Shown here one piece after another: positions 3,001 through 61,260 of a DNA stretch of 64,000 nucleotides; the stretch's first letter is position 1, and each line of letters opens with the position of its first letter. The notes beneath the pieces are model-generated. The model saw only the letters and a program-made list of their open reading frames with translations, was not told the DNA's origin and made no database searches. The translations under genes and the position numbers were made by a program. The DNA comes from Candidatus Omnitrophota bacterium. GTDB taxonomy: Bacteria; Omnitrophota; Gorgyraeia; Gygaellales; Profunditerraquicolaceae. The DNA is taken from positions 204,772-268,771 of the forward strand of contig JAQUOD010000002.1 in assembly GCA_028717245.1 (NCBI GenBank). Reading direction: 5' to 3'.

Positions 3001-6000
3001 CGAGAGTAATTTCACAGCGCAGCCCCATAGCTTTTGGTTGATTGATTTTGCTATCGCTGTTTCTCCGGAAATTAAAGTAAAAGGCATATCTGATGCTTTA
3101 ATCCAGGCTACGGATAAGTATACCGATGAGCAGGGATTAATGAGGCCAGATGCTGCCAGCCGCGCACGGGATGCAGGAAAGTTTAAAGATGCCCTTCTGC
3201 AGGAGCGGGCAAAGGCCCTTCCTGAAGCTAAAGCAAAAAACCTTTCTGGCCTTAACATAATGATACGTTACCTTATGACTACAACGCTAAACCCCAAAGG
3301 AGTGGTTAAAGATTCATTCGCAAAATATGCAGCAATGCCCAACGGTATGAGCCCGTTTTTGCTCTGGCTTAAGGAATCCAAACGCCTGGCAAGGTCAGAT
3401 GGCGTGGATGATAGCCCTTATGCCAATTTTGTTAACGTTATTTCCCCCCTCTTAGAAGAAATTGACAAACACTCCCCTAAAGACCTCGAAGGCTTCCTGA
3501 AAACTTATGATGATTTTGATTATTCCCGCCTTGCCCAGCCGGACGTGATTGAAGAATTTGGAAAACTTCTGCGTGACTTCATCAATGGTTCCTCCAGATA
3601 TGAAGACCAGATAATAGCCGGCCTGCATATGCGCCTGGGAGCCCATATCGGAAGGATAACCAAAAACAGCCTCCCCGGCCACCCCGAGACTTTAGATATG
3701 AACATCCATATGTTTTATCCAGAAAAAGTAAATGACAATATTCCACCGGCAGATAATCCGGTTTTGCCTGTACAAGGGGTGTCCCCAAATGGGACGTCCT
3801 CAGAAGCGCATGCAAGGAATATGATTCCTCCGCTTGTGTTGACTCTTTATTTTGCCAGGATGGCTGGTTTTGCTATGCCTTCTTTAGAATTATCTGCGAG
3901 CGAGATCGATCCGGTGATAGTTATACTTTTGCTTATGTTTTTATTTGTGATAAAAAAGGTAGTGGTGGAAGAGATTGATAAAAGGAGTGAAAAATTGAAT
4001 AGGGCCAGGATTGACAAGATACTCAATAGTAACGAAATAAAGGCAGATGATACAGTGGCAAAGCCCGTTATTAAAAACTATAATTATCCGGAAAGAATTA
4101 CTCCGCATAATGCTCCTATAGCAAAGGTCTTTAAAGAACCCTTGCCGCCTTCAGCCCGGTTTTATCCAAAGACAGAACCTTCATTAAGATTGATGGACTC
4201 TAAATATCAGAATATCGCAAGGGAGTTTAAAGAAGCCATTCAGAATAAACCTTTCCCAACTGAAGGTATGTTCCTTGAAATAGGCCACGGCGGGAATCTA
4301 TCTTCCCCGGGTTTTGCTATTAAATTTGGGCTTGAGCCTTGGGGCATAGATTTAGATAGGCATGCTAATGCCGATACGATAAATGATATTGTCGGACAGG
4401 CTGAAAATATCCTGCCTTTGATAAAAGATAATTCTTTTGATGTGATAGCTGTTATTGATACCTTTGGAATTATGACCAGAGAAAATAGTTTTTATAAAGC
4501 TCAACCCATAGATCCGGTATGGTTAATAATGCAAATAGCCCGGATATTGAAACCCGATGGTTATTTGGTTATCGCAGATTTTTCCGCAGATTTAGAAGAT
4601 TTGAAGTTAAAGTATGGGATGGAACTTAATAAATTAGCTGAAGGCGCAGGCCTTAAAGTTTTGAGATATCGCATTGAAGGCAGTAGGGCAATCTCTATTA
4701 TCTATAAGCCATCAGAATTATCTCCATTAGCCCCCCGCGTAGGAGCCGCTGGTTTGGAGATAGCGGAATTTAAAAAGCCGACAGAAATAGGGTTAGGTCA
4801 AAGGCCAAGTACTGCTGTTACCCTAGATGATGTTCAACTACCTTCTGTTATAGAAAAAGACCGTAAGGATGCAGCGTTAAGCAGCCGCTCAAGGATAGAA
4901 ATAGAAGAAGTGCCTATTCCTGATGCTATGGCAGAAGACGCCAGCAAGGACTCCTTTAGTTTTAAGGAATATATGGACGCTGCGTTATATAATCCTGGCT
5001 GGGGATTTTATGGCTCAGGAAGGGTGCAGTTTACGCGAGGCAAAGATTTCGAGACCTACCCTAAAATACTTTCTCCTGTATTCGGAGAGTTAGTCTGCGA
5101 ACAGGCTTTTAAGATGTGGAAAGGCATGCTGGCTGCAAAGACTATAAGCGAGGCAGAGGAATTTACAATAGTAGAATCTGGCGCAGGCGAAGCAGATTTA
5201 TCCTATGATTTATTATCCCACGCCGAAGAGTTGGCAAAATCGGATGAGCTTTGGAATATTTTCTACCGGCAGCTCGTATATATTAGTTTAGAGCGTTCGC
5301 CGAAATTAGTAAAAAGGCAGAAAGAGAAAAACGCAAAATTCAGTCCGAAATTTCGGGTTATAGAAGGGGATGCCCGCGATGTAGCTAAGCTTATCAAAAA
5401 ACCTATTAAAGGATTAATCCTTTCTAATGAACTGATGGATAATTTCGCTGTTTATAAGGTTAGATTTGAACCAGACGGCGCAACAAAGACTCCCTTAGCC
5501 ATTCCTTTAATCAGCGTTGAGCTCGCCAAGGAATTAAGCAAAAGAGGCATAATCCGAGAATTGGATTTAGCAATGAGAAACGAACAATTGAAGAAGGATT
5601 TTTATCTCCCTAACAAGAAAGGGAAACTTTATATATCTAAAAGCGATTTCTTAAAGATTAAGGCAGAATTAAGCAAGCAAGAATATAGACAGTTGGAAGA
5701 TAGCTTTGATACCCAGATAGATTTTGTTGAGGCGTATTTGGATATTAAATACTTCCCTGAATTATTCGATTATGTCCATAAGAACAGAAGGGAGCTATCT
5801 TTTGCTATAGCCAAGGAAGCAAAAGCAGTTACTGCTTATCTTAGCCCGGATGCGGTTAGGTTTATTCAGTCCGCAGCAGGAATTTTAGATAAAGGTTATA
5901 TCCTGACTATAGATTACGGAGCAAGTACGCAGGGACTCTTGAATCCAGAATACATAAAGCATCCGATAATGATGTATGGCCCTGTATCTGTACGCGATAT

Positions 6001-15914: not shown

Positions 15915-17249
15915 ATGAAAAGGATTTGTTGCGCGTTTTTATTTGTTTTTTGTTCTTTTTTATGCCTCGCCGGTTGCGTGCCGCAGCAGTCGGATAAATA
16001 CCAAACCACCTTGACTGTCTGGCATTGGATGACCGACAGAGAAGAAGCCTTCCAGGAGTTGGCCAAAAGATATGAGGCTTCTTCCGGCGTAAAAGTAAAT
16101 TTTGAACTCTACGCGCCATCGGATGCCTACGCGCAGAAGGTGCGCGCTGCTGCCCAGGGGCAAAACCTTCCTGATATTTTTGGCGTGCTGGGCGAGACGC
16201 GGGATTTCGCGTCCTTTATAAAGGCGGGCCATGTCTTGGGCCTGACCTCCTATATGGATGCAGACAGCGCTAAATGGCGTAATACTTTTTTCAGTAAGGC
16301 CCTGGCAGTAAACGGATTCTCCGACGGTAACAGCTACGGCATCAAACCCGGCATTTACGGCGTACCCATAGATATTATGACCATCCAGATGGTCTATAAC
16401 AAGGATTTATTCAAGAAATTAGGGCTTAACCCCAATGCGCCTCCGGAAACTTTTGCGCAATTCCTGGAGATAGGAAAAAAGATATCCGCCACAAATCGTG
16501 GCGGATCGGGCGGAAAAGAGGCAAAGATGCAGGGCCTGGTTTCCGGGTGGGGAGAGATATGGATGATAGATTGTTTAGCAAACAATTACGCTTTTAATAT
16601 CATGGGCGAGGACAAGGTATTGGCCACCATAAAAGGTGAGATTCCCTATACCGATCCCGATTGGGTCAGGGTATTAACGCTTTTTAAGGAGATGCAGGAT
16701 TCGGGGGTTTTATATAACGGATTGGTGACCATGGCCAATAAGAACGCGGAGCAGTTATTTGCTAACGGAAGGGCGGTCTTTGCCTTTAACGGTTCATGGT
16801 GCGTAAATGTATATAAGTCCATGAATCCGCGCCTGGATTACGCCGCAATGCTCCTGCCAAAGGCCTCGGAAAAATTTCCGGTGAGTATCTGGGGAGGCGC
16901 CGGTTCTTCATTTATGGTAAGCGCTAAATCAAAAAATAAAGAAGAGGCAGTAAATTTTTTAAAATGGCTTACTGACCGCAGCCAACAGGCATATTTAGCG
17001 CAAACTACTTCCAACCCCCCGGCAAATAAAGAGGCGTTAAGTGAGATTCCTCCTGTCCTGGCGCAGTTTGCCGATGATATGGAGTACGCCACGCATCCGA
17101 ATACTTGGGGCGTATCCGAGTCACCCCAGGTTATAGAAACCTTTAATAGAGGGATACAGTCAATAATTATCGGCGAGAAGAGCCCCGAACAGGTAGCGCA
17201 GGAAACGCAGAAGATTAAAGAAAAAGAATTAGCAAAAAAGAAACGATGA
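15915..17249 (+). CDS. ABC transporter substrate-binding lipoprotein, carbohydrate (family 1 SBP)
   Basis: Lipobox LAGC after a hydrophobic signal; overall extracellular solute-binding protein pattern. ATG 15915 is preferred over the TTG at 15903 reported by the ORF track. Confidence 0.7.
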   Translation: MKRICCAFLFVFCSFLCLAGCVPQQSDKYQTTLTVWHWMTDREEAFQELAKRYEASSGVKVNFELYAPSDAYAQKVRAAAQGQNLPDIFGVLGETRDFASFIKAGHVLGLTSYMDADSAKWRNTFFSKALAVNGFSDGNSYGIKPGIYGVPIDIMTIQMVYNKDLFKKLGLNPNAPPETFAQFLEIGKKISATNRGGSGGKEAKMQGLVSGWGEIWMIDCLANNYAFNIMGEDKVLATIKGEIPYTDPDWVRVLTLFKEMQDSGVLYNGLVTMANKNAEQLFANGRAVFAFNGSWCVNVYKSMNPRLDYAAMLLPKASEKFPVSIWGGAGSSFMVSAKSKNKEEAVNFLKWLTDRSQQAYLAQTTSNPPANKEALSEIPPVLAQFADDMEYATHPNTWGVSESPQVIETFNRGIQSIIIGEKSPEQVAQETQKIKEKELAKKKR

Positions 17250-17276
17250 TTTCGTTATTGGGTTACTTGCGTTTTT

Positions 17277-17327
17277 GCGTTATAGCGTTCGAACGCAATA
17301 ACGCTATAACCCTATAACGCTATAACG
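17277..17327 (+). promoter_or_regulatory. 28-bp imperfect palindrome centred on GCGTTCGAACGC, plus three CTATAAC(G) direct repeats, between the SBP and permease genes
   Basis: GCGTTATAGCGTTCGAACGCAATAACGC is self-complementary except for one position per arm. It is followed by GCTATAAC CCTATAAC GCTATAAC immediately before the ATG at 17328. Confidence 0.4.
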
Positions 17328-18208: not shown

Positions 18209-18315
18209 TCGCACCTGGTGCGAAACTGAGATTGTACCGTTTCTGAATTTAAGCTTGTACCTGGTACCCGATTGGTTTCGCAGACGGTATAAGATTGGAT
18301 CTGCACCTGGTGCCA
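18209..18315. repeat. degenerate composite copy of REP family A (GCACCWGGTGC palindromes)
   Basis: GCACCTGGTGCGAAACTGAGATTGTACC, then GTACCTGGTACCCGATTGGTTTCGCA, then GCACCTGGTGCC. It matches the other family A copies with substitutions. Confidence 0.55.
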
Positions 18316-20799: not shown

Positions 20800-23145
20800 A
20801 TGATAAGTTCAGTTTTAAGCTATAAGCTATCAGTTTTAAGCAAGAAAAAAAATATTTTGTTTCTTTTGTTGCTGTTTCTTACAGCTTACAGCTTACAGCT
20901 TACAGCTTACAGTTGTTTTGCTGAAGAGCTAAGTAACCCTTCTTCCGGCGAGCTCATCGTCAAGGCCTGGGAGGCGCACGGTAAAAGAGACACAGAGGCG
21001 ACTTTTAGATATACGCAGGAGTGTATTGATTTATATAAAGGAGAAGCCGATAAACAACAGGCAGCCTTAGGGGCGCTTCCTAAGAATAAAGAAGAAATCG
21101 GGCAGGTAGCGGTTTTAAATGACGTAGCCACCGCTTATTTTATTCAGGCAGAAAGCCTGATGCGCCAGGAAAAGATTGGAGAAGCCAAGAAGATTTTTCA
21201 ATTAATTATTGATAAATATTCTTATGCCCAGGCGTGGGATCAGCGCGGCTGGTACTGGCAGGTCGCGCAGGCAGCAGGCCAGAGCATAAAGAAGATAGAG
21301 ATCGGCTCCATTGAGATAGATAAAAAAATCAAAATAAGCCAAATCTCTACTACTATAACCCTATACGATACGGGTAAGGAAGACTTCGTAGATTACGCCA
21401 AATACGGCGAGTTTAAAAATATCGGGACAAAGGATTACGCCTATGTAATAAAAGACCAGGAAGGTTTGAGCCAAGCAGTAGGCGAAGGCATCTATCCGAA
21501 TACTAGTTCAGTCAGGTGGGACCCGGAATTTAAAAAGGCGCGCGAGGAAAAAAGGCTGGAAGGCAACCACTGGGATTTTTTGCATTCCCCGGATTTGGAA
21601 GCTGCTTTTTTAAAATGGGCCACTACTTCTGAGCCGATGGGGATAAAGTTATTTTATACCGGCATTATCTTAGAAAAGGCAGGCCTGATAAAACACGCCA
21701 TTAAATGCTATTATGCTATTGTGGTGCATTTTCCGGGCAGTACCGGCTGGACTTATTGGCATACGCCCTGGTCAGTGGGGCAGGCGGCAATCTCCAAAAT
21801 AAATTTTCTCCTGCGCACCCAATCCAATTTAGGCTATAAGCTTGTGGATGCGGATATCCGCATCATTAACGGATACGATAATGATATCTCTAACGATATC
21901 GTGATTACCAATCCGGGCAGGTTTGAAAAGGTCAATTTTTTAGAGAAATTCAAACCCAAAACATTGCCCGCAGGGGCAAAGAATATCAAGCGGCGCCTGG
22001 GAGAAGGCAAAGTGCACCTGGTCCAATATGAAAACGGAGACTGGCAGCTTATGGTGAATAATAAGCCCTATATAATTAAAGGTATTACCTACGCCCCGAC
22101 AAAAGTAGGCGAGTCTCCCGATGAAGGGACAATGACCAACTGGATGGAAGACGATTTTAACCAAAACGGCAAAATCGACGGGCCTTATGACGCCTTTGTG
22201 GACAAAAACAGGAATAACCTGCAGGATGCAAATGAGCCGAGCGTCGGAGATTTTTATCTCATGAAGGAAATGGGTGTAAATACTATCCGGCTCTACCAGC
22301 AGCCTTTTAAGGTAAATAAAGAGCTGCTGCGTGAACTTTATCAGAATTACGGTATTATGGTGATTATGGGAGATTTTTTAGGTAAATATGCCTTAGGTTC
22401 CGGGGCGAGCTGGTATCCGGGTACGGATTATAATAACGAAGAACACAGAAAAAATATGTTGGAATCCGTCATCAAGATGGTTTTGGAATTTAAGGATGAA
22501 CCATACGTTCTGTTCTGGTTATTAGGTAATGAGAATGTCTATGGGTTTGCCTGTAATGCCAATACCGAGCCGGATGCCTTTTTTAAATTTGCCAATGAAG
22601 TAGCCAAACAAATCAAGGCGATTGACCCTGAGCATCCGGTAGCTATCTGTAGCGGCGATACCTTATTTTTAGATAAATTCGGCAAGAATTCATGCGATAT
22701 TGATATCTTCGGCACCAATGCCTACCGGGGCGAATATGGTTTTGGTTTTATCTGGAAACAGGTAAAAGAAGAGGCGGATAAAGCGGTATTTATTACGGAA
22801 TTCGGCTGCCCGGCTCATGCTGAGAGTAAAGCCTTAGACAAAGCGGAATTTTTGCAGGCGCGATATCATCAGGGGGCCTGGGGCGATATAGAGCATAATA
22901 TGGCCTTTCAGCATGGCGCGGGAAATGCCTTAGGTGGCGTAGTCTTTGAATGGCTGGATGAATGGTGGAAGGCCTATGAGCCTTTTTTGCATGATACCAA
23001 AGGCCTCTTCACCGGCCCTTTTCCCGACGGATTTATGCATGAGGAGTGGCTGGGTTTGAGCGGCCAGGGCGACGGCAAGCTAAGCCCGTTCTTGCGGCAG
23101 TTACGCCAGTCATATTATACGTATAAGAAATTATGGAGGCGATAG
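20800..23145 (+). CDS. secreted clan GH-A (TIM-barrel) glycoside hydrolase-like protein with an N-terminal helical/TPR-like region
   Basis: Signal peptide. LLGNENVYG (NE acid/base) and FITEFGCP (nucleophile) occur at the spacing typical of GH2/GH5-type retaining hydrolases. Paralogous to 24489..25748. Confidence 0.55.
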   Translation: MISSVLSYKLSVLSKKKNILFLLLLFLTAYSLQLTAYSCFAEELSNPSSGELIVKAWEAHGKRDTEATFRYTQECIDLYKGEADKQQAALGALPKNKEEIGQVAVLNDVATAYFIQAESLMRQEKIGEAKKIFQLIIDKYSYAQAWDQRGWYWQVAQAAGQSIKKIEIGSIEIDKKIKISQISTTITLYDTGKEDFVDYAKYGEFKNIGTKDYAYVIKDQEGLSQAVGEGIYPNTSSVRWDPEFKKAREEKRLEGNHWDFLHSPDLEAAFLKWATTSEPMGIKLFYTGIILEKAGLIKHAIKCYYAIVVHFPGSTGWTYWHTPWSVGQAAISKINFLLRTQSNLGYKLVDADIRIINGYDNDISNDIVITNPGRFEKVNFLEKFKPKTLPAGAKNIKRRLGEGKVHLVQYENGDWQLMVNNKPYIIKGITYAPTKVGESPDEGTMTNWMEDDFNQNGKIDGPYDAFVDKNRNNLQDANEPSVGDFYLMKEMGVNTIRLYQQPFKVNKELLRELYQNYGIMVIMGDFLGKYALGSGASWYPGTDYNNEEHRKNMLESVIKMVLEFKDEPYVLFWLLGNENVYGFACNANTEPDAFFKFANEVAKQIKAIDPEHPVAICSGDTLFLDKFGKNSCDIDIFGTNAYRGEYGFGFIWKQVKEEADKAVFITEFGCPAHAESKALDKAEFLQARYHQGAWGDIEHNMAFQHGAGNALGGVVFEWLDEWWKAYEPFLHDTKGLFTGPFPDGFMHEEWLGLSGQGDGKLSPFLRQLRQSYYTYKKLWRR
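20878..20912 (+). repeat. perfect (CTTACAG)x5 heptanucleotide tract inside the signal-peptide coding region
   Basis: Five exact 7-nt units at 20878-20912, encoding LTAYSLQLTAYS. Confidence 0.9.
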
Positions 23146-23174: not shown

Positions 23175-23233
23175 AAGGGACAGGTACAATCTTAATTCCG
23201 CACCAGGTGCCCGATTAGATTTGCACCTGGTGT
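23175..23233 (+). repeat. REP family A copy (A2)
   Basis: AAGGGACAGGTACAATCTTA..GCACCAGGTGCCCGATTAGATTTGCACCTGGTG; an internal hairpin is formed by GCACCAGGTGC / GCACCTGGTGC. Confidence 0.8.
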
Positions 23234-24407: not shown

Positions 24408-24484
24408 TAGGGACGGTTCTCAAGCCAAAGCAAGAAGTGTCCCCATAAGGGGACACTTCTCCGATTGGACTAAGAACCGTCCCT
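24408..24484. repeat. REP family B doublet (B1): ~77-bp long palindrome
   Basis: TAGGGACGGTTCTCAAGCCAAAGCAAGAAGTGTCCCC-ATAA-GGGGACACTTCTCCGATTGGACTAAGAACCGTCCCT; arms of about 36 bp. Confidence 0.8.
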
Positions 24485-24488
24485 CTAT

Positions 24489-25748
24489 ATGCAGTATGCA
24501 GTGAAGAAATTAAACGCTACATTCATTATTGCCGTATTTTTTTTGGTCTTAACGGCTATATCCTGTGCTCCGGCTAATAGGCCGAGCGTCTATATTCAAA
24601 AACTCAAAAATAGCCGTTACCAGTTAATGGTAGAGCGTAAGCCCTATGTGGTCAGAGGCGTCTGTTATAATCCTATCCCCATCGGAGCGAACCACGAATA
24701 CGATTGGTGGTCAGACTCCAATAAACCTTGGCTTATAGACGGAAAATTAATGCAGGAGATGGGCGCGAATACTGTCAGGCTCTATCAGGTCCATGAGAAT
24801 GCCGAAGAGGTCAAGACGGTCATCCGCGATTTATACGAACGTTACGGTATCCGCACTATTCTCGGGCATTGGCTGGGTTTTTGGGAATATCCCTGCCCGC
24901 TTTACGCGGATAAAGGCTTCCAGGATAGGATAAAGGGAGAGGTCCTGGCTATGGTTTCTACATACAAGGATGAGCCGGGCCTGCTCTTATGGATTCTGGG
25001 TAATGAAAATAATTATTCCTGTTGGGGCAGGGTTAATCCCTGGTCGGATGATGGAATAGACAAGGAGCCTGACCCGCAGAAAAAATGCCTCATGCGCGCC
25101 GATATTTATTATTCTTTTGTGAACGAGTTGGCAAAAGAGATACACAAGATAGACCCAGAGCATCCGGTGGCGCTGGGTAACGGAGAATTAATAGGTTTGG
25201 ATATTGCCAACAAAGCATGCCCGGATATAGACCTGGTTGCCTGCATTATTTACCGGGGCAAGACCTTTGGTAATCTTTTCCAGTCTTTGAAGTTATCCTT
25301 TGATAAGCCGATATTGTTATCGGAGATCGGCGCAGACAGTTACAATGCCCACAAAAATGTAGAGGACCAGAACATGCAGGCCTTCTTCTTAGAATCGCAG
25401 TGGCGCCAGATTTATGAAAACTTAGCCCGGAATAAAAAAGGCGCGGGCAATTGTTTAGGAGGCGCAATCTTTGAATGGACAGACGAGTGGTGGAAACATA
25501 ATGAAGGCGACCCCGAAGGCTGGAAGATGCATAATACCGAAGCCGGCTGGTCCAGCGGCAGTTATTATTTTGATATACAGGCGCCCAATAATATGAATAT
25601 GAACGAAGAGTATTTCGGTATTGTGGCCCTCTCGCAGGACTTAGAGGGCGGCATCGATAAGCGTATCCCCAAAAAAAGCTATTATGTCATCAGGGAGTTC
25701 TGGAAGAATCCCGTTGAGAAGCCAAAAGCCAAAAATAAAAAGCCGTAA
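24489..25748 (+). CDS. secreted clan GH-A glycoside hydrolase-like protein (paralog of the 20800 gene catalytic region)
   Basis: LLWILGNENNYS and LLSEIGADS motifs, with AIFEWTDEWWKHNEG matching VVFEWLDEWWKAYE in the paralog. Confidence 0.55.
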   Translation: MQYAVKKLNATFIIAVFFLVLTAISCAPANRPSVYIQKLKNSRYQLMVERKPYVVRGVCYNPIPIGANHEYDWWSDSNKPWLIDGKLMQEMGANTVRLYQVHENAEEVKTVIRDLYERYGIRTILGHWLGFWEYPCPLYADKGFQDRIKGEVLAMVSTYKDEPGLLLWILGNENNYSCWGRVNPWSDDGIDKEPDPQKKCLMRADIYYSFVNELAKEIHKIDPEHPVALGNGELIGLDIANKACPDIDLVACIIYRGKTFGNLFQSLKLSFDKPILLSEIGADSYNAHKNVEDQNMQAFFLESQWRQIYENLARNKKGAGNCLGGAIFEWTDEWWKHNEGDPEGWKMHNTEAGWSSGSYYFDIQAPNNMNMNEEYFGIVALSQDLEGGIDKRIPKKSYYVIREFWKNPVEKPKAKNKKP

Positions 25749-25787
25749 GCTATAAGTCCTAAGCTTTAGGCCGAAAAGGAAAAAAGA

Positions 25788-27410
25788 ATGAGAAAAATAA
25801 AATATAAACTTATCAAAGCATTTTTGATATTTATTTTTGCTTACAGCTTACAGCTTACAGCTTACAGCTTATTCGCCCAGGACGCCGATAAAACAGCCGC
25901 GCTTATGCAACAGATTATTGAAGTGAAAACAAACACGGATTTATACGCGCCCTTTGAGGAATTAAAGAACTTATATTTTCAAGAGAATAAATATTCGGAA
26001 TTTATAGAATCCTTAGGCCCTTTACTTACGAAAAAAGAGGCCTCAGCGCCCTTCGTAAATTATTACACTGCCTTAAGCCGCTATTCCCAGCTTAAATATT
26101 TGGAAGAGACACAGAACTGGGACGAATATTTTAATAAAGGTAATACCTATAGGGATGAACTCAACTTAGGCCTGCAGAATACAATCGCTTCTACGAACGC
26201 TAAAGAAGCCTTGAATCTTTATGCTAAGCTTCTCTTGTGGCAGTTCCATAAGGACCAGCAGGATGTTTTTGCGGATGCCGCATTTACTGACTTATTGAAT
26301 ACCGCCTCGGAGTATGCCAAAGATACGCAAAACCCCAAGCCCATAAAAGATGTTGCGGATAAACTTTTAGCCTACGCGGAAAAAAACGAATCCAGGCAGT
26401 TGTACCGGCTTTATGTAGAGAAGTTAATCGCTTCGGTTAAGGAAGACAAGGAATTGGAGAATATTGCCTTAGGATTTTATCAGGAAGGTAATTTAGAGTT
26501 ATCCGAGGCCCTTTTTGATGCTTATATAGAGCGTATCAGTAAAGAATCTCCAAAAGATAGGGTCCTGTTGGCGCTGATAGATATTGCCCGGAAATTTTCC
26601 TATCGGGAGGATGGGACAAAAGATGCCGCTTACGCCGAGAAGATATTTGCCAAGATCGAGGAGATAGGCAAAAAGGATGCCTTTAGTGAAGAGCTGAAGT
26701 ATCTACGCGCTTTCAATGCGCAGACATTAAAGGAATACGCAAAGGCAAAAGATTTTTATCTGGATTTGCTGCAGCGTTATCCTAAGAGCGCTTATGCTGA
26801 TGAGGCGAATCTCAAGGCGGGCATTATCTCTACCTATATATTAAGGGATATAAAAGCAGGCAGGGATTATTTTAGCATATTGGTGCAGAAGGAGCCATTA
26901 GCCCCGGGGGGCATCTTGAGTTTATACCAATTAGGATTACTTAGCCAGTGGGAGAATGATTTAGAAAAGGCCAAGGGTTATTATCGTCAACTGCTTGAGA
27001 AAGCAGGCGAGAATTTCCCTGAGACCACGGCATTGGCTAGGGAGAGGCTGAAAGAGATAGAAGAGGCAAAGCCGTTGGAATATAATCTTAAGACGTTCTT
27101 AGACCTTTCCTTAAAAGACGAATATAAAATTTTCGATATGACCAAGCTGGATTTAAAGGCATCTTTGGCTAAAGCCAGGAAAGGCCAAGGCATAAACTTC
27201 AGCACTAGCACTTATGCTGGCGAAAGCGGCTGCATGCAGGTAGAAATACAATATCTCTGGTCAGGCGAGCTCGGGGCGACACAACCTGCTACGCAGGAGC
27301 AGGCATTTGATACTGCCTACAACCAGGCCGGCACTAAAATCATAAGTTTAGTCGTAGCTTCTCCTTCAGGCATTATAGACAGAGGCATCGTAATACTAGA
27401 CATCGATTAG
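25788..27410 (+). CDS. secreted TPR-repeat protein
   Basis: Signal peptide followed by helical repeat composition. Confidence 0.55.
   Translation: MRKIKYKLIKAFLIFIFAYSLQLTAYSLFAQDADKTAALMQQIIEVKTNTDLYAPFEELKNLYFQENKYSEFIESLGPLLTKKEASAPFVNYYTALSRYSQLKYLEETQNWDEYFNKGNTYRDELNLGLQNTIASTNAKEALNLYAKLLLWQFHKDQQDVFADAAFTDLLNTASEYAKDTQNPKPIKDVADKLLAYAEKNESRQLYRLYVEKLIASVKEDKELENIALGFYQEGNLELSEALFDAYIERISKESPKDRVLLALIDIARKFSYREDGTKDAAYAEKIFAKIEEIGKKDAFSEELKYLRAFNAQTLKEYAKAKDFYLDLLQRYPKSAYADEANLKAGIISTYILRDIKAGRDYFSILVQKEPLAPGGILSLYQLGLLSQWENDLEKAKGYYRQLLEKAGENFPETTALARERLKEIEEAKPLEYNLKTFLDLSLKDEYKIFDMTKLDLKASLAKARKGQGINFSTSTYAGESGCMQVEIQYLWSGELGATQPATQEQAFDTAYNQAGTKIISLVVASPSGIIDRGIVILDID
25840..25867 (+). 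repeat. perfect (CTTACAG)x4 heptanucleotide tract inside the signal-peptide coding region
   Basis: Four exact units plus a partial CTTA, encoding AYSLQLTAYSL. Same repeat as at 20878. Confidence 0.9.
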
Positions 27411-28080
27411 CACCAGGTGCAAATCTAATCGGGCACCTGGTGCGGAATCAATCTTGTACCTGTCCCTCCCGGATTAAAGAAGAAATAATTGATTGAGAAT
27501 CCCGTCATCCTTACCTAATACCCGTGCATTATAGCTATTCCACGGATATTCCGAAAGTTGTTTTACCAAACCCGCTTTTAATGGATTTAATTCTATATAG
27601 TTTATACATTCGATTAAATAGTTATCTTTAGTGATAATCATACTTTTGAATCTACCTTGCCAGAGATGGCCGACTTCCTCATATTTATTATTAAAATAGA
27701 GGGTGTAGGCCCTATTTAAATCGTGCATAAAACTAGATAGCAATAAATGGTCATCCATTTCGCCGAGTAGATGTACGTGGTTAGGCATGAGACAATAAGC
27801 ATATGCCCGGAAATTATGTTTTCGCTTGAATTTCTTTAAAAGTGAAAGATAAAAAAGATGATCCTCCCGGCATTTAAAGACTTCCCGTTTTTGGTTGCCC
27901 CTTGTTATTAAGTGATAGCAGGCATTTTTTATCAAAAGCCTCTTTACGTTACTCATTCCAATCACCTCCTTCTATTATAATAGACGCAGAGATACCGGTT
28001 TTCTAACAGAAAAATTATAAAAGGGACAGGTACAATCTTAAATTCGCACCAGGTGCCCGATTGAAATCGCACCAGGTGCG
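27409..28080 (-). mobile_element. RAYT-REP unit 1: RAYT gene bracketed by inverted REP family A copies (A3 27409-27466, A4 28021-28080)
   Basis: The reverse complement of A4 aligns with A3 (TCGGGCACCTGGTGCG.AAT..A..TTGTACCTGTCCCT). The RAYT sits between them. Confidence 0.8.
27474..27956 (-). CDS. REP-associated tyrosine transposase (RAYT; IS200/IS605-like Y1 HUH transposase fold)
   Basis: CYHLITRGNQ ... CLMPNHVHLL (HUH) ... GHLWQGRFKS ... YIELNPLKAG (catalytic Tyr + NP). ATG at 27956 with RBS GGAGGTGAT is preferred over the GTG at 27965. Confidence 0.85.
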   Translation of the reverse strand: MSNVKRLLIKNACYHLITRGNQKREVFKCREDHLFYLSLLKKFKRKHNFRAYAYCLMPNHVHLLGEMDDHLLLSSFMHDLNRAYTLYFNNKYEEVGHLWQGRFKSMIITKDNYLIECINYIELNPLKAGLVKQLSEYPWNSYNARVLGKDDGILNQLFLL

Positions 28081-31717: not shown

Positions 31718-34030
31718 ATGGAGGATAAAATGACGCTGCCACTTTCGGAGAATGCCTTAAAGGTATTGGAGAAAAGATACCTTAGTAAAGACGAAGCGGG
31801 AAAGGCCATTGAGACGCCGCAAGGGATGTTTCGCCGCGTCGCCAAGGCCATTGCCGCGGCAGATAAATCTTACGGCAAAAAAGAAGAAGAGGTAGAGGCC
31901 CTTGAGGAATCTTTTTACCGTATTATGGCAGCACTGGAATTTATCCCCAATTCACCTTGTTTAATGAATGCGGGAAAGGAATTAGGGCAATTAAGCGCTT
32001 GCTTTGTTTTGCCTATTGAAGACTCAATGGATTCTATTTTTGAAAGCCTTAAGGCGACGGCCATGATACACAAGTCAGGAGGCGGGACAGGGTTTTCTTT
32101 TTCGCGGCTGCGCCCGAAAAATTCGGTAGTAAGGACAACAGGGGGGATTGCATCCGGGCCAGTTTCCTTTATGAAGGTTTATGACGCGGCAACTGAAGCA
32201 GTGAAACAAGGGGGTAGCCGTCGCGGAGCGAATATGGGAATCCTGAGGGTGGACCATCCAGATATCCTGGAATTCATTACCTGCAAGGAAAACGATAAAC
32301 ACATAAATAACTTCAATATCTCGGTCAATATCACCGAAGATTTTATGAAGAAATTGGAAAAGGGCGAAGATTATGACCTGGTTGATCCTCGCACGCAAGA
32401 AGTAGTAAAGCGCATTAATACCAAAGATGTATTTGAGCTGATCGTCAAGCAGGCGCATAAGAACGGAGAACCGGGGGTTGTTTTTATCGACCGGATGAAT
32501 GATTTTAATCCCACGCCAAAATTAGGAAGGTTTGAGTCGACCAATCCCTGCGGTGAACAGAATTTACTTCCTTATGAAAGCTGCGATTTGGGTTCCATAA
32601 ATTTATCCGTCATGCATAAAAAGGTGGAAGGCCGTTTTGAAATTGATTGGGAGAGGTTAAAGTCAGTCACACATCTATCAGTACATTTCCTGGACAACCT
32701 CATTGATGTAAATAAGTTCCCCCTTCAGCAGATTGAAAAGGCCACAAGGCTTACGCGTAAAATAGGCCTTGGGGTTATGGGCTGGGCAAGCCTGTTGATA
32801 CGTTTAAATATCCCTTATAACAGCGACGAGGCAGTTGCCCTAGGCGAAAAGGTCATGTCATTTATTTTAAACGAGGCAACCAAGAAGTCGCTGGAATTAG
32901 GTAAGAGTAAAGGACTTTTTCCTGCCTTTAAGGGGAGTATTTACGATAAAAAAGAAGGCGTGTTGAGGGTGCGTAACGCCACCCTCACCACTATTGCTCC
33001 CACAGGTACAATAAGCATAATCGCCGGGCCCTGTTCGTCTGGCATCGAGCCGCTCTTTGCCATATCTTATTACCGTAACGTAATGGATAATGATAAATTA
33101 GTTGAGGTTGACCCCTTATTTGAAGAGATTGCCAAAACACGGGGTTTTTACAGCCGCGAACTGATGGAGAAGATTGCCGAGAAATCCTCCCTCCAGGGTA
33201 TTGAAGGGATTCCCGAAGACGTAAAGAGGATTTTTGTCACGGCGCATGACATCTCTCCTGAATGGCATGTACGCATGCAGGCGGCATTTCAGAAATACGT
33301 GCATAATGCCACCTCCAAGACCATAAACTTTCCTCACGAAGCAAAGGCAGAAGAAGTAAAAAAGGCATATCTTTTAGCTTATGAGTTGGGCTGCAAAGGC
33401 ATAACCATTTACAGGGACAAGAGCCGCGAGGAACAGGTCTTGAATGTCGGCCAAGCGACAGAAAAGCCGCAACAGCAATTGAAAGAGCTCAAAAAAGAGA
33501 TTGCCCCCCGGCCGCGCCCGGAAGTGATCATGGGCACGACTACCAAAGTGGCTACGGGCTGCGGTAACCTCTATGTGACCATAAACAGCGACGAGACTGG
33601 TGCGCCTTTTGAACTTTTTACGCAGATGGGTAAGGCCGGCGGTTGCGCCGCCAGCCAGCTTGAGGCTATCGGCCGTTTAGTTTCCCTGGGTTTTCGTTCC
33701 GGCATTGAAGTAAAAGCTATTATCGAGCAGTTACGTAATATCCGTTGTCCCTCGCCTTCCTGGGAAAAGGGGCAGCGTATATTTTCCTGCGCGGACGCTA
33801 TCGCCCGCGTAGTGGAGAAGAGGCTATTGAACGGCGTGGCGGATATTCCTGTTCCTTTAGAAGAGGCCGCGAATATCGCTATGAAACATTCCCACCATGA
33901 TGAGATTACGGCCTCCGATGATTTCAGCCTGCACGGAGATATCGTTGGCGTCTGCCCTGATTGCGGAGGCGCGCTGCGTCATGAAGAGGGCTGTGTTAAA
34001 TGCCATGCCTGCGGATTTTCGAAGTGTTGA
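31718..34030 (+). CDS. nrdJ: ribonucleoside-diphosphate/triphosphate reductase, class II (adenosylcobalamin-dependent), with C-terminal Cys4 zinc ribbon
   Basis: NPCGEQ active-site thiol motif, ESCDLGSINL, and C-terminal CPDCGG...CVKCHACG. Confidence 0.8.
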   Translation: MEDKMTLPLSENALKVLEKRYLSKDEAGKAIETPQGMFRRVAKAIAAADKSYGKKEEEVEALEESFYRIMAALEFIPNSPCLMNAGKELGQLSACFVLPIEDSMDSIFESLKATAMIHKSGGGTGFSFSRLRPKNSVVRTTGGIASGPVSFMKVYDAATEAVKQGGSRRGANMGILRVDHPDILEFITCKENDKHINNFNISVNITEDFMKKLEKGEDYDLVDPRTQEVVKRINTKDVFELIVKQAHKNGEPGVVFIDRMNDFNPTPKLGRFESTNPCGEQNLLPYESCDLGSINLSVMHKKVEGRFEIDWERLKSVTHLSVHFLDNLIDVNKFPLQQIEKATRLTRKIGLGVMGWASLLIRLNIPYNSDEAVALGEKVMSFILNEATKKSLELGKSKGLFPAFKGSIYDKKEGVLRVRNATLTTIAPTGTISIIAGPCSSGIEPLFAISYYRNVMDNDKLVEVDPLFEEIAKTRGFYSRELMEKIAEKSSLQGIEGIPEDVKRIFVTAHDISPEWHVRMQAAFQKYVHNATSKTINFPHEAKAEEVKKAYLLAYELGCKGITIYRDKSREEQVLNVGQATEKPQQQLKELKKEIAPRPRPEVIMGTTTKVATGCGNLYVTINSDETGAPFELFTQMGKAGGCAASQLEAIGRLVSLGFRSGIEVKAIIEQLRNIRCPSPSWEKGQRIFSCADAIARVVEKRLLNGVADIPVPLEEAANIAMKHSHHDEITASDDFSLHGDIVGVCPDCGGALRHEEGCVKCHACGFSKC

Positions 34031-34083
34031 TATAAAGCCGTAAGTCCTAAGCTGTAAGCTTAAAGCTTTTTAAGTTTACGAAT

Positions 34084-35369: not shown

Positions 35370-35989
35370 AGGGACGGTTCTCAAACTAACCTAAAAGTGT
35401 CCCCCTCCCGCAGAGATATTGTCTAGAGAAGAGGAATATCGTCTAAAAACAGACTATTTTTTAGCCTAAAAACATAGCTGCTCCAGCGATATCCGTTTAT
35501 GTTTGCAGTTATAGACGCCCTCAAAGGATTAGTTTCTATATAGTTTATACATGCTAAAAAATAACCATCTTTATGTATAATTTTACTTTTATATCTGTCC
35601 TGCCAGAGATGACCAACTGTTTTATATCTGTAATTGAAATATAAGGTATAGCTCAAATTTAAGCCACGCATAATCTTATTTAATAGGAACGGATTTTCAA
35701 CCTCGATAATAAGATGCACGTGGTTAGGCATTAAACAAAAACAATATAGTTTAAATTTATATCGTCTTTTGTATTTAATTAATATGTTTAAGTATTTTTC
35801 GTAATCTTGAGGGTTCCTAAAAACCGATTGTTTTTGATTACCCCTTGTGATAATATGATAACAGCTATTCTCTATAGTTATTCTTGCTGTTCGTGGCATA
35901 TTTCTCACCTCCCAATATAATAGACGCATAAAGTATAAATTTCTAACATAAAAAGGGGACACTTTTAACCGCAATTGAGAACCGTCCCT
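35370..35989 (-). mobile_element. RAYT-REP unit 2: RAYT gene bracketed by inverted REP family B half-elements (35370-35405 and 35955-35989)
   Basis: The reverse complement of the right arm, AGGGACGGTTCTCAATTGCGGTTAAAAGTGTCCCC, matches the left arm AGGGACGGTTCTCAAACTAACCTAAAAGTGTCCCC. Confidence 0.8.
35423..35899 (-). CDS. REP-associated tyrosine transposase (RAYT), second paralog
   Basis: CYHIITRGNQ ... CLMPNHVHLI ... GHLWQDRYKS ... YIETNPLRA. ATG at 35899 with RBS GGGAGGTGAG. The longer ORF-track start at 35974 would read through the REP arm. Confidence 0.85.
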   Translation of the reverse strand: MPRTARITIENSCYHIITRGNQKQSVFRNPQDYEKYLNILIKYKRRYKFKLYCFCLMPNHVHLIIEVENPFLLNKIMRGLNLSYTLYFNYRYKTVGHLWQDRYKSKIIHKDGYFLACINYIETNPLRASITANINGYRWSSYVFRLKNSLFLDDIPLL

Positions 35990-48225: not shown

Positions 48226-48303
48226 TAGGGACGGTTCTTTAAGCCAAAGCAAGAAGTGCCCCTTTTTAGGGACACTTCTCCGATTGTATTGAGAACCGTC
48301 CCT
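48226..48303. repeat. REP family B doublet (B2): ~78-bp long palindrome
   Basis: TAGGGACGGTTCTTTAAGCCAAAGCAAGAAGTGCCCC-TTTTTA-GGGACACTTCTCCGATTGTATTGAGAACCGTCCCT. It shares GCCAAAGCAAGAAGTG and GACACTTCTCCGATTG with B1. Confidence 0.8.
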
Positions 48304-49177: not shown

Positions 49178-49675
49178 ATGGAGGCGAAAATGGATGAGAT
49201 ATTAGAGATATTACAGAAGGACGCGCGCACCACGGCGGAAGATATTGCCAAGATGCTCAAAAAGAGTCCTCAGAAAATAAAGGAAGCCATAAAGAAATAT
49301 GAGAAAGAAGGGGTGATATTAAAGTATAAGACAGTAATTAACAGAGAGTTAATCAAGGATACGAATTCCGAGGTCCGCGCCCTGATAGAAGTCAATATTG
49401 CCCCGCAGAAAGACGTAGGTTTTGATAAGGTTGCCGAACGGATATATTCGTTTCCCGAAGTTTCCAGTTGTTATCTGATTTCCGGCACCTATGATTTATT
49501 ATTGATTGTCGAAGGCCCTGACCTGCATACTGTTTCCCGATTTATAGCGGAAAAACTGGCTCCATTAGAGAATATCAAGGGGACAACCACGCATTTCCTC
49601 TTAAAAAAATACAAGGAAGACGGCGTGATTTTAAAACATAGAGAAGAGAATAAAAGAATAGCAATATCGTATTAG
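49178..49675 (+). CDS. Lrp/AsnC-family transcriptional regulator
   Basis: N-terminal HTH (ILEILQKDARTTAEDIAKML) plus a C-terminal RAM domain. Confidence 0.75.
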   Translation: MEAKMDEILEILQKDARTTAEDIAKMLKKSPQKIKEAIKKYEKEGVILKYKTVINRELIKDTNSEVRALIEVNIAPQKDVGFDKVAERIYSFPEVSSCYLISGTYDLLLIVEGPDLHTVSRFIAEKLAPLENIKGTTTHFLLKKYKEDGVILKHREENKRIAISY

Positions 49676-49762
49676 TTTATTGAGTTTATAGAGTTCGTTG
49701 AGTTTGTTGAGTTTTGGGTTTAACTCAATAACACAATAAACTCAAGTAACGCAATAACGAAA

Positions 49763-60097: not shown

Positions 60098-61222
60098 GTG
60101 TCCGGCCCAGGTGATGATAATCTTTTAAATAAGGCCAAGAGATATTCTTCCCTCAAGTATAGCCTGGCCCTTTTGGATATAGTTTATGTTATCGCGCTAC
60201 TTTTAATATTTTTAGGGCTGGGCATATCCAAGGGCCTGGCAGAGACGCTCAGCAATTTTACTCAGAGTCAATATATCGTCGTCCCGCTCTTTATCCTCAT
60301 AGTCTCACTTGCCTATTATCTGCTTAGCTTTCCTTTAAATTTTTATTCCTCGTATATACTGGAACATAAATTTTCCCTCTCCCGGCAGAAATTAGGGGAT
60401 TGGTTCCTGGATCAGGCCAAGGCAGGCATTATTTCTTATCTCATCGGCCTCATCTTTATTTCTGTATTGTATTATGTATTGAAGTGTTATGTCTTTAGCT
60501 GGTGGTGGATTATTTCTTTTATCTGGATATTCTTCAGCCTGATTTTAGCCAGGCTTACGCCTGTTGTGATTATACCTTTATTTTTCAAATATAAGAAACT
60601 CTCAGACGATAATCTCCGGCAGCGGATTCTACGCCTGGCAGATAAGATGAGAATCAGAGGGCTTGATGTCTTTGAGATAGACTTCAGTAAAAAAACGCAA
60701 AAAGCAAATGCTGCTTTTGTCGGAGTCGGCAGGACAAAACGGGTGATATTGGCGGATACGTTAAGGGATAAATATAGCCCTGATGAAATTGAGGTTATCC
60801 TGGCGCATGAATTCGCGCATTACAGGTTAAGGCACCTGCTTAAGCTTATTCTGGTCAGTTCTTTAGCTACGCTGCTGACATTTTATTTTATATTTAAAAC
60901 CAGTAATTATCTCCTGGGCCTGTTTGGTTTATCTTCCTTATTGGATATTGCGGCACTGCCGGTTATTTTTCTCTATTGGATTATATTCGGGATAATCACG
61001 CAGCCCTTGAATAACTATATCAGCCGCAGATTAGAAAGGAATGCGGATGCCCTGGCGTTAGAAACGACCGGATTAAAAGAGGCCTTTATTTCTACTATGG
61101 ATAAACTCTGTGAACAGAATCTTGCCGATAGAAAACCCCACCCGCTGATCAAGTTTTTTTTCTTTGACCACCCGCCCATCGATGAACGCATAACTCTTGC
61201 AAAGGGACAGGTACAATCTTAG
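60098..61222 (+). CDS. polytopic membrane zinc metalloprotease (HExxH; M48/M56-like)
   Basis: ILAHEFAHYRLRH zincin motif after multiple TM segments. The last six codons and the stop are contributed by REP copy A5. Confidence 0.5.
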   Translation: MSGPGDDNLLNKAKRYSSLKYSLALLDIVYVIALLLIFLGLGISKGLAETLSNFTQSQYIVVPLFILIVSLAYYLLSFPLNFYSSYILEHKFSLSRQKLGDWFLDQAKAGIISYLIGLIFISVLYYVLKCYVFSWWWIISFIWIFFSLILARLTPVVIIPLFFKYKKLSDDNLRQRILRLADKMRIRGLDVFEIDFSKKTQKANAAFVGVGRTKRVILADTLRDKYSPDEIEVILAHEFAHYRLRHLLKLILVSSLATLLTFYFIFKTSNYLLGLFGLSSLLDIAALPVIFLYWIIFGIITQPLNNYISRRLERNADALALETTGLKEAFISTMDKLCEQNLADRKPHPLIKFFFFDHPPIDERITLAKGQVQS

Positions 61223-61260
61223 TTTTGCACCAGGTGCCCGATTGGATTTGCACCAGGTGC
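61202..61260 (+). repeat. REP family A copy (A5) between convergent genes; overlaps the 3' end of the M48-like gene
   Basis: AAGGGACAGGTACAATCTTAGTTTTGCACCAGGTGCCCGATTGGATTTGCACCAGGTGC. The TAG at 61220-61222 inside the element terminates the upstream gene. Confidence 0.8.

Follow-up and report, generated by a model that had tools for sequence, protein, structure and literature searches.

A paralog-specific pairing of Y1 nuclease genes with inverted, dispersed palindromic repeats in a Candidatus Omnitrophota genome

The window (i.e., the whole 64-kb stretch of DNA analysed here) belongs to a Candidatus Omnitrophota MAG and carries, at 27474-27956 on the minus strand, a gene for a 160-aa protein (RAYT-1) predicted to be a Y1 nuclease of the HUH/Tyr class, which is neighboured by a ROK gene and by a convergent gene encoding a TPR protein of 540 aa. 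In the open reading frame listing of the window this gene extends over 27474..27965 (minus strand, 163 aa) from a GTG codon; translation almost certainly begins at the ATG at 27956 and not at the listed GTG, since this ATG is preceded by GGAGGTGA, and 160 aa is also the length of the database protein P0001 and of all homologs. The gene, its flanking repeats and the related elements of the window are the following:

27474..27956, minus strand: RAYT-1, predicted 160-aa Y1 HUH/Tyr nuclease gene, with its stop codon at 27474-27476
27957..28021, minus strand: RAYT-1 leader, with the Shine-Dalgarno sequence GGAGGTGA and a promoter-like TAGAAA-17-TATTAT (28005..27977)
27410..27467, minus strand: family-A arm 3' of RAYT-1, terminal inverted repeat, 84.6 bits (covariance model)
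28022..28079, plus strand: family-A arm 5' of RAYT-1, inverted relative to 27410-27467, 76.6 bits
23176..23233, plus strand: family-A singlet, full, in the gap between genes of 781 and 382 aa, 83.7 bits
61203..61260, plus strand: family-A singlet, full, filling the gap between two convergent genes, 82.5 bits
18209..18315, unstranded: family-A degenerate inverted doublet, with a minus copy at 18209-18269 (32.3 bits) and a plus copy at 18263-18315 (27.1 bits)
35423..35899, minus strand: RAYT-2, second paralog, 158 aa, 50% identical to RAYT-1
35370..35404, plus strand: family-B arm 3' of RAYT-2, AGGGACGGTTCTCAA-N10-AAGTGTCCCC
35955..35989, minus strand: family-B arm 5' of RAYT-2, inverted relative to 35370-35404
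24409..24484, unstranded: family-B inverted doublet (REPIN/MITE-like), with the arms found around RAYT-2 and 4 nt replacing the gene
48227..48303, unstranded: second family-B inverted doublet, in an intergenic gap

The original prediction had described a minus-strand open reading frame of about 160 aa bearing the motifs CLMPNHVHLL and YIELNPLKAG, and both are present in the translation of RAYT-1, in which the HUH motif corresponds to H60-V-H62, the catalytic tyrosine to Y120 within YIELNP, and the proximal tail motif to PWNSY. The HMM comparison with Pfam PF01797 (Y1_Tnp) that had been suggested as a check gave a clear match (62.3 bits against a cut-off of 23, E 6e-17, residues 14-125), this being the sole domain found in the Pfam search. 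The NCBI model for REP-associated tyrosine transposases (NF047646) was passed marginally by RAYT-1 (84.2 bits against a cut-off of 80), with RAYT-1 orthologs scoring 78.9-85.6 and RAYT-2 falling just below the cut-off at 74; the RAYT-1 clade is at the edge of this model. A sequence search of the PDB returned a single match, the E. coli TnpA_REP structure 4ER8 (E 1.5e-8), whose HUH and Tyr motifs align with H60-V-H62 and Y120 of RAYT-1. The same structure was the best match of the AF2 model of RAYT-1 (pLDDT 90.2), with a TM of 0.75 and all 160 residues covered, C-terminal tail included, and the top 29 PDB matches of the model were Y1 transposases without exception (29/29). Across 32 homologs, H60, Y120, N124, P125 and S141 are invariant, and the HUH and Tyr motifs are invariant or nearly so. 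The fold and the catalytic residues of a Y1 enzyme are thus present, and all of the 120 closest homologs listed are likewise about 160 aa long.

An inverted-repeat search recovered the arms of RAYT-1 at 27410-27467 and 28022-28079 (58 nt, 83% complementary, with 554 nt between them), one base off the positions previously given for inverted flanking elements of about 58 bp. The GGGAC ends of both arms point toward the gene, and the outer end of the 27410-27467 arm, which reads on the minus strand AGGGACAGGTAC / spacer / GCACCAGGTGC / CCGATTAGATTT / GCACCTGGTGC, overlaps the TAG stop codon of the convergent TPR gene. These family-A repeats are built of 23-nt modules, each made of an 11-nt palindromic box and a CCGATT spacer, with a GGGGWSAS-like box at the start and three boxes per 58-nt repeat. 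The palindrome GCACC(A/T)GGTGC and the shared tail, both pointed out in the original prediction, occur far above shuffle expectation: GCACCWGGTGC with one mismatch at most was found 13 times in the window (0.34 expected; 0/100 shuffles reached 13), and the tail AGGGACAGGTACAATCTTA, when as many as 3 mismatches were allowed, was found 4 times (0.02 expected), the left-flank tail carrying 3 mismatches (AGGGACAGGTACAAGATTG).

A covariance-model search of the 64-kb window yielded four full family-A copies and one doublet, such that the element is indeed repeated elsewhere in the form of dispersed copies; among the further copies that had been listed, those at 23176 and 61203 are full, while the one at 18209 is a degenerate inverted doublet and not a full copy. 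All of the window's copies are intergenic or overlap stop codons, with the 23176 singlet being 95% identical to the 27467 copy over 57 nt, the 61203-61260 singlet overlapping the stop codons of both convergent genes, and the 18209-18315 doublet having its GGGAC tails inward, as in the RAYT-1 unit with its gene removed. Every family-A copy is predicted to be foldable into a hairpin with an 11-bp stem and a 12-nt loop (dG -15.7 and z -4.0 for the 27410-27467 arm). When the window was scanned for Rfam families and tRNAs there were no matches, and the family-A and family-B repeats correspond to no described RNA family.

RAYT-1 with family A and RAYT-2 with family B constitute two cognate pairs less than 8 kb apart, and no Y1 gene beyond these two was found by tblastn with RAYT-1 across the window. 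For the family-B doublet at 24409-24484, folding predicts a stem some 36 bp long (dG -30.5, z -10.3). A third RAYT type (P0095, in L020) is flanked by a third repeat family (family C), for which no standalone copies were found within ±10 kb in L017, L018 and L020.

The gene-repeat pairing is conserved across genomes, each paralog having its own family. Arms of the family-A type flank the RAYT-1 orthologs of L002, L005, L007, L009 and L011 alike, and do so at fixed distances (the upstream arm in L002, L005 and L007 having non-palindromic boxes, GCACCGTYTGC), and family B borders both RAYT-2 and its syntenic ortholog in L017. At all loci alike, the gene-proximal ends of the arms are about 57 nt upstream of the start codon and 6-8 nt past the stop codon, and the paralog-specific pairing is kept at a minimum of eight independent loci. 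In addition, the promoter-like hexamers of RAYT-1 are located inside a block (TGTTAGAAAA...CGTCTATTATA) that is kept in all orthologs and in RAYT-2; the promoter is predicted solely from its consensus match, the cross-locus conservation being the evidence for it.

RAYT genes are under purifying selection, with a dN/dS of about 0.09 for RAYT-1 versus its syntenic ortholog at saturated dS. They are syntenic in close relatives, yet each unit is missing from some related genomes: the RAYT-1 unit is absent beside ROK in L017, and in L002 no RAYT-2 unit lies between mnmG and the phosphomutase gene. Similarly, the 23176 singlet and the family-B doublet are missing from the orthologous gaps of L002 and L005, and the gap of L002 orthologous to the 18209-18315 doublet holds one family-A-like singlet. 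These presence/absence differences are all between species whose synonymous sites are saturated, and the orthologous gaps have diverged, such that comparison of filled and empty gaps gave no precise insertion boundaries or target duplications. Furthermore, L007 contains, about 5 kb away from its own unit, an internally deleted copy of it (4877-5103) which has kept both distinct ends and a promoter remnant.

The locus had been presented as the 'classic' RAYT/REP arrangement, a description that does not hold. Judged by sequence comparison, RAYT-1 is closest to the TIR-associated branch, i.e., the TIRYTs of TIRtrons (Di Nocera, De Gregorio and Rocco, 2013, PMC3733652), which correspond to TnpA_Y1 subclass 2.1 (Quentin et al., 2018, PMC6006769) and to RAYT Group 1 (Bertels et al., 2017, PMC5581495), and not to the classical GTAG-REP RAYTs. 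When RAYT-1 was compared by BLASTP with the sequence set given in Additional file 5 of PMC3733652, its best matches were TIRYTs (35-39% identity, about 150-157 aa, E 1e-37 to 1e-41), with weaker matches to classical RAYTs (24-31%, E about 1e-12), and its motifs NHVH, WQ and YIELNP match exactly the table for subclass 2.1 (PMC6006769). The long terminal inverted repeats with a gene-proximal GGGGWSAS also fit this branch: the family-A sequence is AGGGACAG, agreeing at 7/8 positions, and exact matches are seen in L007 (GGGGACAG) and in L009, family B and family C (GGGGACAC). Moreover, the dispersed singles and dimers are moderately abundant, as in some TIRYT hosts (PMC3733652).

Differences to the published TIRYTs were also found. 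Those compared have 216-238 aa, long proteins with a median of 238 aa being typical of the branch, whereas RAYT-1, at 160 aa, ends right past the W[NS]SY proximal tail; the alignments stop at about residue 150-159 of the TIRYTs, and the C-terminal HTH-like (DnaA_C-type) extension of ~70 aa is absent from RAYT-1. The modular organization described here, with quasi-palindromic boxes of 11-12 nt, a 23-nt period and CCGATT spacers, is one for which we found no published description, and the host phylum is Omnitrophota.

The solved relative, E. coli TnpA_REP (RayT/YafM) with its REP/BIME elements, belongs to subclass 2.2 (4ER8; Messing et al., 2012, PMC3479197). Like RAYT-1, it is a small single-domain Y1 enzyme of low copy number and vertical inheritance pattern, with its gene lying between inverted copies of a palindromic repeat that is dispersed through intergenic DNA. 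However, the two proteins are just 22-26% identical; the HUH context is NHVH in RAYT-1, not DHLH/EHMH; and the residues E100, H101 and R104 that contact GTAG are S, M and T in RAYT-1 (alignment read against PMC6006769). The E. coli REP is one imperfect palindrome of about 35 nt with a 5' GT[AG]G hairpin foot, whereas family A has 58 nt and three boxes, with no GTAG or GTGG at either hairpin foot; the 5 nt before the family-A hairpin vary (ATTCC, AATTC, GTTTT, AATTT), with no conserved guide tetranucleotide.

With a probability of roughly 75%, we propose that the locus is a 'TIRtron/REPtron', namely a chromosomal gene that has its own recognition element on either side, in inverted orientation, and whose product is a small HUH/Tyr (Y1) nuclease-ligase for single-stranded DNA from the TIRYT-like branch of the RAYT/TnpA_REP class. 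The idea of a RAYT with a cognate REP is accordingly retained as regards the Y1/RAYT class, the inverted and dispersed repeats and the recurrence of the pairing in Omnitrophota orthologs, and given up as regards the GTAG-REP branch. Adjacent 11-nt palindromic boxes would pair in single-stranded DNA (e.g., at the replication fork) into a hairpin exposing CCGATT in its 12-nt loop, and the enzyme would bind both this hairpin and the GGGAC(A/C) end box. Y120 would then cleave through a 5'-phosphotyrosine link, with a metal held by H60/H62, and the strands would be rejoined, an activity that would give rise to repeat singlets, gene-less doublets and, rarely, a copied or moved whole unit. For the most part, the RAYT gene itself acts like a resident passed on vertically, unlike an insertion sequence that multiplies, and mobility on an evolutionary scale is supported by the presence/absence of units and singlets and by the internal deletion in L007.

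The gene-less inverted doublets, i.e., those of family B (24409-24484 and 48227-48303), the family-A doublet 18209-18315 and that of L007 (4877-5103), resemble the REPINs of Pseudomonas fluorescens (Bertels and Rainey, 2011, PMC3116915) in the long hairpins that they are predicted to form. Unlike these REPINs, the doublets mirror the geometry of the whole gene unit, the L007 doublet with its promoter remnant is a visible deletion derivative, and family A is found in the window mostly as singlets, its sole doublet there being degenerate.

An unlikely alternative would be that the locus is an autonomous IS200-like insertion sequence, with movement of the 672-bp unit (ends plus transposase), and that the singlets and doublets are its decayed remnants (solo ends, internal deletions) instead of trans-mobilised elements. 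The presence or absence of whole units among related genomes fits this explanation, as do the three different neighbourhoods occupied by RAYT-1 homologs of more distant lineages and the internal-deletion derivative of L007 with its distinct left and right ends. RAYT-1 and RAYT-2 are also much AT-richer than their neighbours (GC 31-35% vs 42-48%), and AT-richness relative to the surroundings is frequent in foreign or mobile genes. Group 1 RAYTs are, besides, the most IS-like RAYT group (Bertels et al., 2017, PMC5581495). The TnpAs of IS200/IS605 elements (IS608, ISDra2) have the HUH/Tyr core fold in common with the RAYT-1 model, matching the core only (TM about 0.5); the ends of the RAYT-1 unit could likewise form hairpins, and in the relatives L002, L005 and L007 the left and right ends are unlike.

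On the other hand, RAYT-1 failed the IS200 model NF033573 (21.5 bits vs a cut-off of 55), its tyrosine motif is the Y---NP of class 2 and not the Y---Q of class 1.1 to which IS200 belongs (PMC6006769), and it has an extra C-terminal tail, inverted arms and no tnpB partner. Nor is the unit multi-copy in the available sequence, the window's two copies being just 50% identical and having different ends, and most RAYT-1 homolog clusters are on 1-2 contigs. RAYT-1 has moreover kept its ROK/TPR position in three species with saturated synonymous sites at the low dN/dS given above, and neutral decay is disfavoured for the singlets because their boxes stay near-perfect while their spacers drift.

It is considerably less probable that the repeats are host regulatory elements, whether terminators, mRNA-stabilising hairpins or duplex operators placed every 23 bp for a dimeric protein, with an incidental or autoregulatory link to the Y1 gene. 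Such a role is compatible with the location of the copies, each of which is found either at the 3' end of a gene or in a narrow gap between genes; the boxes, perfect palindromes of 11 bp that recur every 23 bp as expected of sites bound in duplex form, could just as well be such sites, and the upstream arm overlaps the promoter-like hexamers of the RAYT gene. Covariation gave the hairpin no support, as among 13 sequences with hardly varying stems the observed values were reached by shuffles in 124-328 of 500 trials. Against a regulatory role, the pairing is conserved and paralog-specific at the loci described above, individual copies are present in some species and missing from others in gaps that are syntenic apart from this, and RAYT-1 is a short protein with no HTH or other duplex-binding domain. 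As a main explanation the terminator reading was dropped, given that the terminator scan flagged only sub-hairpins of some copies, with no T-run after the hairpins, and these were not called as convincing intrinsic terminators. Finally, that the repeats are MITEs of an unrelated (e.g., DDE) transposase which came to flank the Y1 gene by chance insertions is hardly credible, as only the general MITE-like look of the doublets speaks for it, whereas in every ortholog the arms keep the same distances to the start and stop codons, each of the three RAYT types has an arm family of its own, and the tblastn search, which covered the Y1 type, revealed no further Y1 gene in the window.

Returning to the TIRtron/REPtron reading, the proposal that the system is active or recently active was not borne out. 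The family-A copies of the window differ by 7-17%, no two being identical, and differences in occupancy were seen between species only. A scan of genome contigs with a 24-base family-A pattern found one copy, in another Omnitrophota MAG (L001), which is about as similar as the copies inside one genome, and this similarity may reflect constraint instead of recent spread; a metagenome scan with the family-A pattern added 4 short contigs bearing variant arrays.

The locus is a clear but fairly ordinary further example of a known enzyme-plus-repeat partnership, and it leaves the current understanding of RAYT/REP systems unchanged. To our knowledge, RAYT/REP partnerships have been studied almost solely in Proteobacteria, and our literature search found no paper linking RAYT or REP elements to Omnitrophota. 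Subclass 2.1 (TIRYT) is the largest RAYT group; we know of no biochemistry on this TIR-associated branch, which is reported to lack REP-like hairpins. In the compact Omnitrophota genomes, a minimal 160-aa member of the branch has ends that join the GGGGWSAS signature with boxes predicted to form REP-like hairpins.

More tentatively, and with less than even probability, Omnitrophota might harbour a phylum-wide, long-persisting clade of TIRYT-like Y1 nucleases of ~160 aa. Their ends would be assembled from homologous modules of 23 nt that co-diverge with the enzyme, each combining a quasi-palindromic box and a CCGATT loop, and an inner GGGGACAS box would be present as well. If this were true, the passage from full unit to internally deleted doublets and to singlets would have all of its stages visible side by side, and the lineage would represent a still living link between IS200-like elements, TIRtrons and REP/REPIN systems; biochemical work on the TIRYT branch, which is poorly understood, would also gain a minimal enzyme with a defined substrate. 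RAYT-1/family A versus RAYT-2/family B offers a clean natural specificity test, and the small size of the enzyme suits in vitro work. As for annotation, a set of intergenic palindromes is now explained, several of which supply the stop codons of neighbouring genes. TA or A-rich flanks tend to border the repeats.

The minus-strand open reading frame of the original prediction exists, and both CLMPNHVHLL and YIELNPLKAG were found in its translation. ORF calling placed it at 27474..27965 (163 aa, GTG start); this GTG sits within the Shine-Dalgarno sequence GGAGGTGA, and translation from the ATG at 27956 gives 160 aa, a length shared by an identical database protein (P0001) and all close homologs, of which those named are all Omnitrophota. 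The product, RAYT-1, matched Pfam Y1_Tnp (6e-17), the profile proposed as a check, passed the NCBI REP-associated tyrosine transposase equivalog narrowly (84.2 bits, cut-off 80) and fell below the IS200 model cut-off (21.5 vs 55); since its orthologs and paralog score 74-86 bits against the same equivalog, the clade lies at the edge of that model. E. coli TnpA_REP (4ER8) was the sole PDB sequence match (E 1.5e-8), its HUH and Tyr motifs aligning with those of RAYT-1, and also the best structural match (TM 0.75, all 160 residues) of a confident AlphaFold model built from 32 homologs (pLDDT 90.2), followed by IS200/IS605 transposases matching in the core only (TM about 0.5). The homolog alignment shows no variation at H60, Y120, N124, P125 and S141.

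The inverted repeat flanking RAYT-1 is likewise real, with 58-nt arms at 27410-27467 and 28022-28079 that are 83% complementary. With up to 1 mismatch allowed, its GCACCWGGTGC box has 13 occurrences in the window vs 0.34 expected; with up to 3 allowed, its 19-nt tail has 4 vs 0.02 expected. Among the further copies predicted for this repeat, designated family A, two proved to be full, and the one at 18209 is a degenerate inverted doublet, not a plain copy:

Family-A copies elsewhere in the window
23176-23233, full copy
61203-61260, full copy
near 18209, degenerate inverted doublet

Each copy in the window sits in a tight intergenic gap, several overlapping the stop codons of neighbouring genes. 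Thirteen copies from the window and five other genomes were aligned without gaps, displaying three boxes with a 23-nt period: box 1 [A/G]GGGACAGGTAC, a 12-nt spacer, box 2 GCACCWGGTGC, spacer CCGATTNNNTTT, and box 3 GCACCWGGTGC. Boxes 2 and 3 can pair over 11 bp and so close a loop of 12 nt (dG -11 to -16 kcal/mol, z -1.8 to -4.7); the stems hardly vary among the copies compared, and covariation speaks neither for nor against the hairpin. With a covariance model, the window yielded four full copies plus one doublet, and each RAYT-1 ortholog examined had both arms beside it. Variant box arrays were also observed on metagenome contigs L013, L015 and L016, including three tandem CAGGTGC-CCGATTAACTTT modules in L016 and, in L015, arrays that mix GCACCAGGTGC with GCACCGCTTGC boxes; more than two repetitions of the 23-nt module can therefore occur.

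A tblastn search revealed a second paralog of 158 aa on the minus strand, RAYT-2 (35423-35899), which shares 50% identity with RAYT-1 and is flanked by inverted copies of a 35-nt repeat unlike family A, AGGGACGGTTCTCAA-N10-AAGTGTCCCC (family B). The RAYT-2 unit (35370-35989) exactly spans the gap from the phosphomutase stop codon to the mnmG start codon, and its syntenic ortholog in the relative L017 likewise carries family-B arms. Two gene-less copies were found:

Family-B copies elsewhere in the window
24409-24484, gene-less inverted doublet
48227-48303, gene-less inverted doublet

When folded, these doublets have stems of about 36 bp (dG -30.5 kcal/mol, z -10). They share the layout of the RAYT-2 unit, with 4-5 nt in place of the gene, and the family-A spacer motif CCGATTG occurs in their right arms. 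P0095, in the genome L020, represents a third RAYT type and has a third arm family of like plan, GGGGACACCTTT-CCGATTGATTCC-AAAGACGTCCCT-CGATTAGAAGC-AAAGACGTCCCT. Common to the arm families are a gene-proximal box fitting GGGGWSAS, the 23-nt period and recurring CCGATT in the spacers; 7 of the window's 44 CCGATT sites lie inside elements, in 562 nt, vs 0.39 expected, these copies not being independent.

RAYT-1 exactly fits the motif set NHVH / W[EQ] / YIELNP tabulated for TnpA_Y1 subclass 2.1 (Quentin et al. 2018, PMC6006769), which those authors equate with the TIRYTs of Di Nocera et al. 2013 (PMC3733652). The latter are RAYT-like genes between long terminal inverted repeats sharing GGGGWSAS, not GTAG-tagged REPs, and in some hosts the repeat families are moderately abundant, as singles, dimers or groups (PMC3733652). 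In BLASTP against published RAYT and TIRYT sequences rebuilt from Additional file 5 of PMC3733652, both window proteins were closest to long TIRYTs (35-39% identity, about 150-157 aa, E 1e-37 to 1e-41), and classical RAYTs were far from both (24-31% identity; for RAYT-1, E 1e-12 to 1e-15). The matched TIRYTs are 216-238 aa long, whereas the Omnitrophota proteins, ending shortly past their W[NS]SY proximal tail, miss the C-terminal extension of roughly 70 aa. RAYT-1 retains W94 and Q95 of E. coli TnpA_REP, but has S, M and T in place of that enzyme's GTAG-contact residues E100, H101 and R104; in agreement with this, none of the 13 aligned copies has GT[AG]G at the foot of the hairpin. The predicted RAYT with cognate REPs holds in outline, and the locus is best classed as an Omnitrophota RAYT locus of the TIRtron type, which pairs a short TIRYT-like enzyme with its dispersed cognate repeat and has some variant features (short protein, modular 23-nt ends). 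The literature searched contained no description of such a locus in this phylum.

In the window, as in the relatives L002 and L005 (72% and 71% protein identity), RAYT-1 has a ROK gene on one side and a TPR gene of 520-540 aa on the other; dN/dS is about 0.09 and synonymous sites are saturated. The gap with the downstream arm measures 63 nt in all three (59-73% identical). Neighbourhoods of more distant homologs differ. L002 and L005 lack the 23176 singlet and the family-B doublet in the orthologous gaps, the RAYT-2 unit is absent at the mnmG/phosphomutase junction in L002 and present in L017, and the RAYT-1 unit is absent next to ROK in L017. In the relative L007, a doublet without the gene lies about 5 kb away from the RAYT; it retains the distinct left arm of that RAYT unit (GCACCGTCTGC boxes), a promoter-region remnant and the right arm, and therefore derives from the whole unit by internal deletion. 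These differences and the L007 derivative show movement or loss, on an evolutionary time scale only. Family-A copies in the window are 83-93% identical to one another, and a copy from another species (L001) is similarly close.

Upstream RAYT arms with non-palindromic GCACCGTYTGC boxes were observed in L002 (9875-9933), L005 (3650-3709) and L007 (9883-9919 and 4877-4936), the downstream arms there keeping GCACCWGGTGC, so that left and right ends are unlike. Both window RAYT-1 arms have palindromic boxes; conversion by a dispersed copy may explain this. Both RAYT genes are far richer in AT than the genes around them, RAYT-1 despite its synteny across species with saturated synonymous sites: GC is 35% in RAYT-1 and 31% in RAYT-2 (42-48% in adjoining genes), and GC3 37% and 30% (47-57%).

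Fold, catalytic residues, paralog-specific enzyme-repeat pairing, repeat dispersal and selection on the gene are established; a mechanism may be proposed by analogy with TnpA_REP and IS608 (PMC3479197). The enzyme would recognise the repeat as single-stranded DNA (box hairpin, CCGATT loop and GGGAC end box), cleavage would proceed via Y120 with metal bound by H60/H62, and strand rejoining would mobilise singlets and doublets in trans. The short protein has no HTH domain, which favours single-strand recognition over duplex binding; the palindromic boxes, at fixed 23-bp spacing, may nevertheless be duplex binding sites.

Among other features, the window ribonucleotide reductase (31718-34030, 770 aa) is without the intein insertion of its orthologs in L017 (11808-15473) and L018, a further relative (1221 aa, Intein_splicing and LAGLIDADG domains). 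At 17249-17327 and 49670-49758, paired neighbouring tandem arrays with 8-9-nt units and opposing orientations (ATTGCGTT/AACGCTAT and TATTGAGTT/TAACTCAA) form long imperfect intergenic palindromes, unrelated to families A and B. Perfect heptanucleotide arrays, (CTTACAG)5 at 20878-20912 and (GCTTACA)4.7 at 25839-25871, lie inside 5' signal-peptide-like coding regions of 781-aa and 540-aa genes; since the 7-nt unit is not divisible by 3, slippage would cause frameshifts, and phase variation of both genes is possible. Related arrays occur a short way upstream, with further sites at 20816-20841, 25747-25776 and 34033-34067, and similar ones are found in intergenic DNA of L005.
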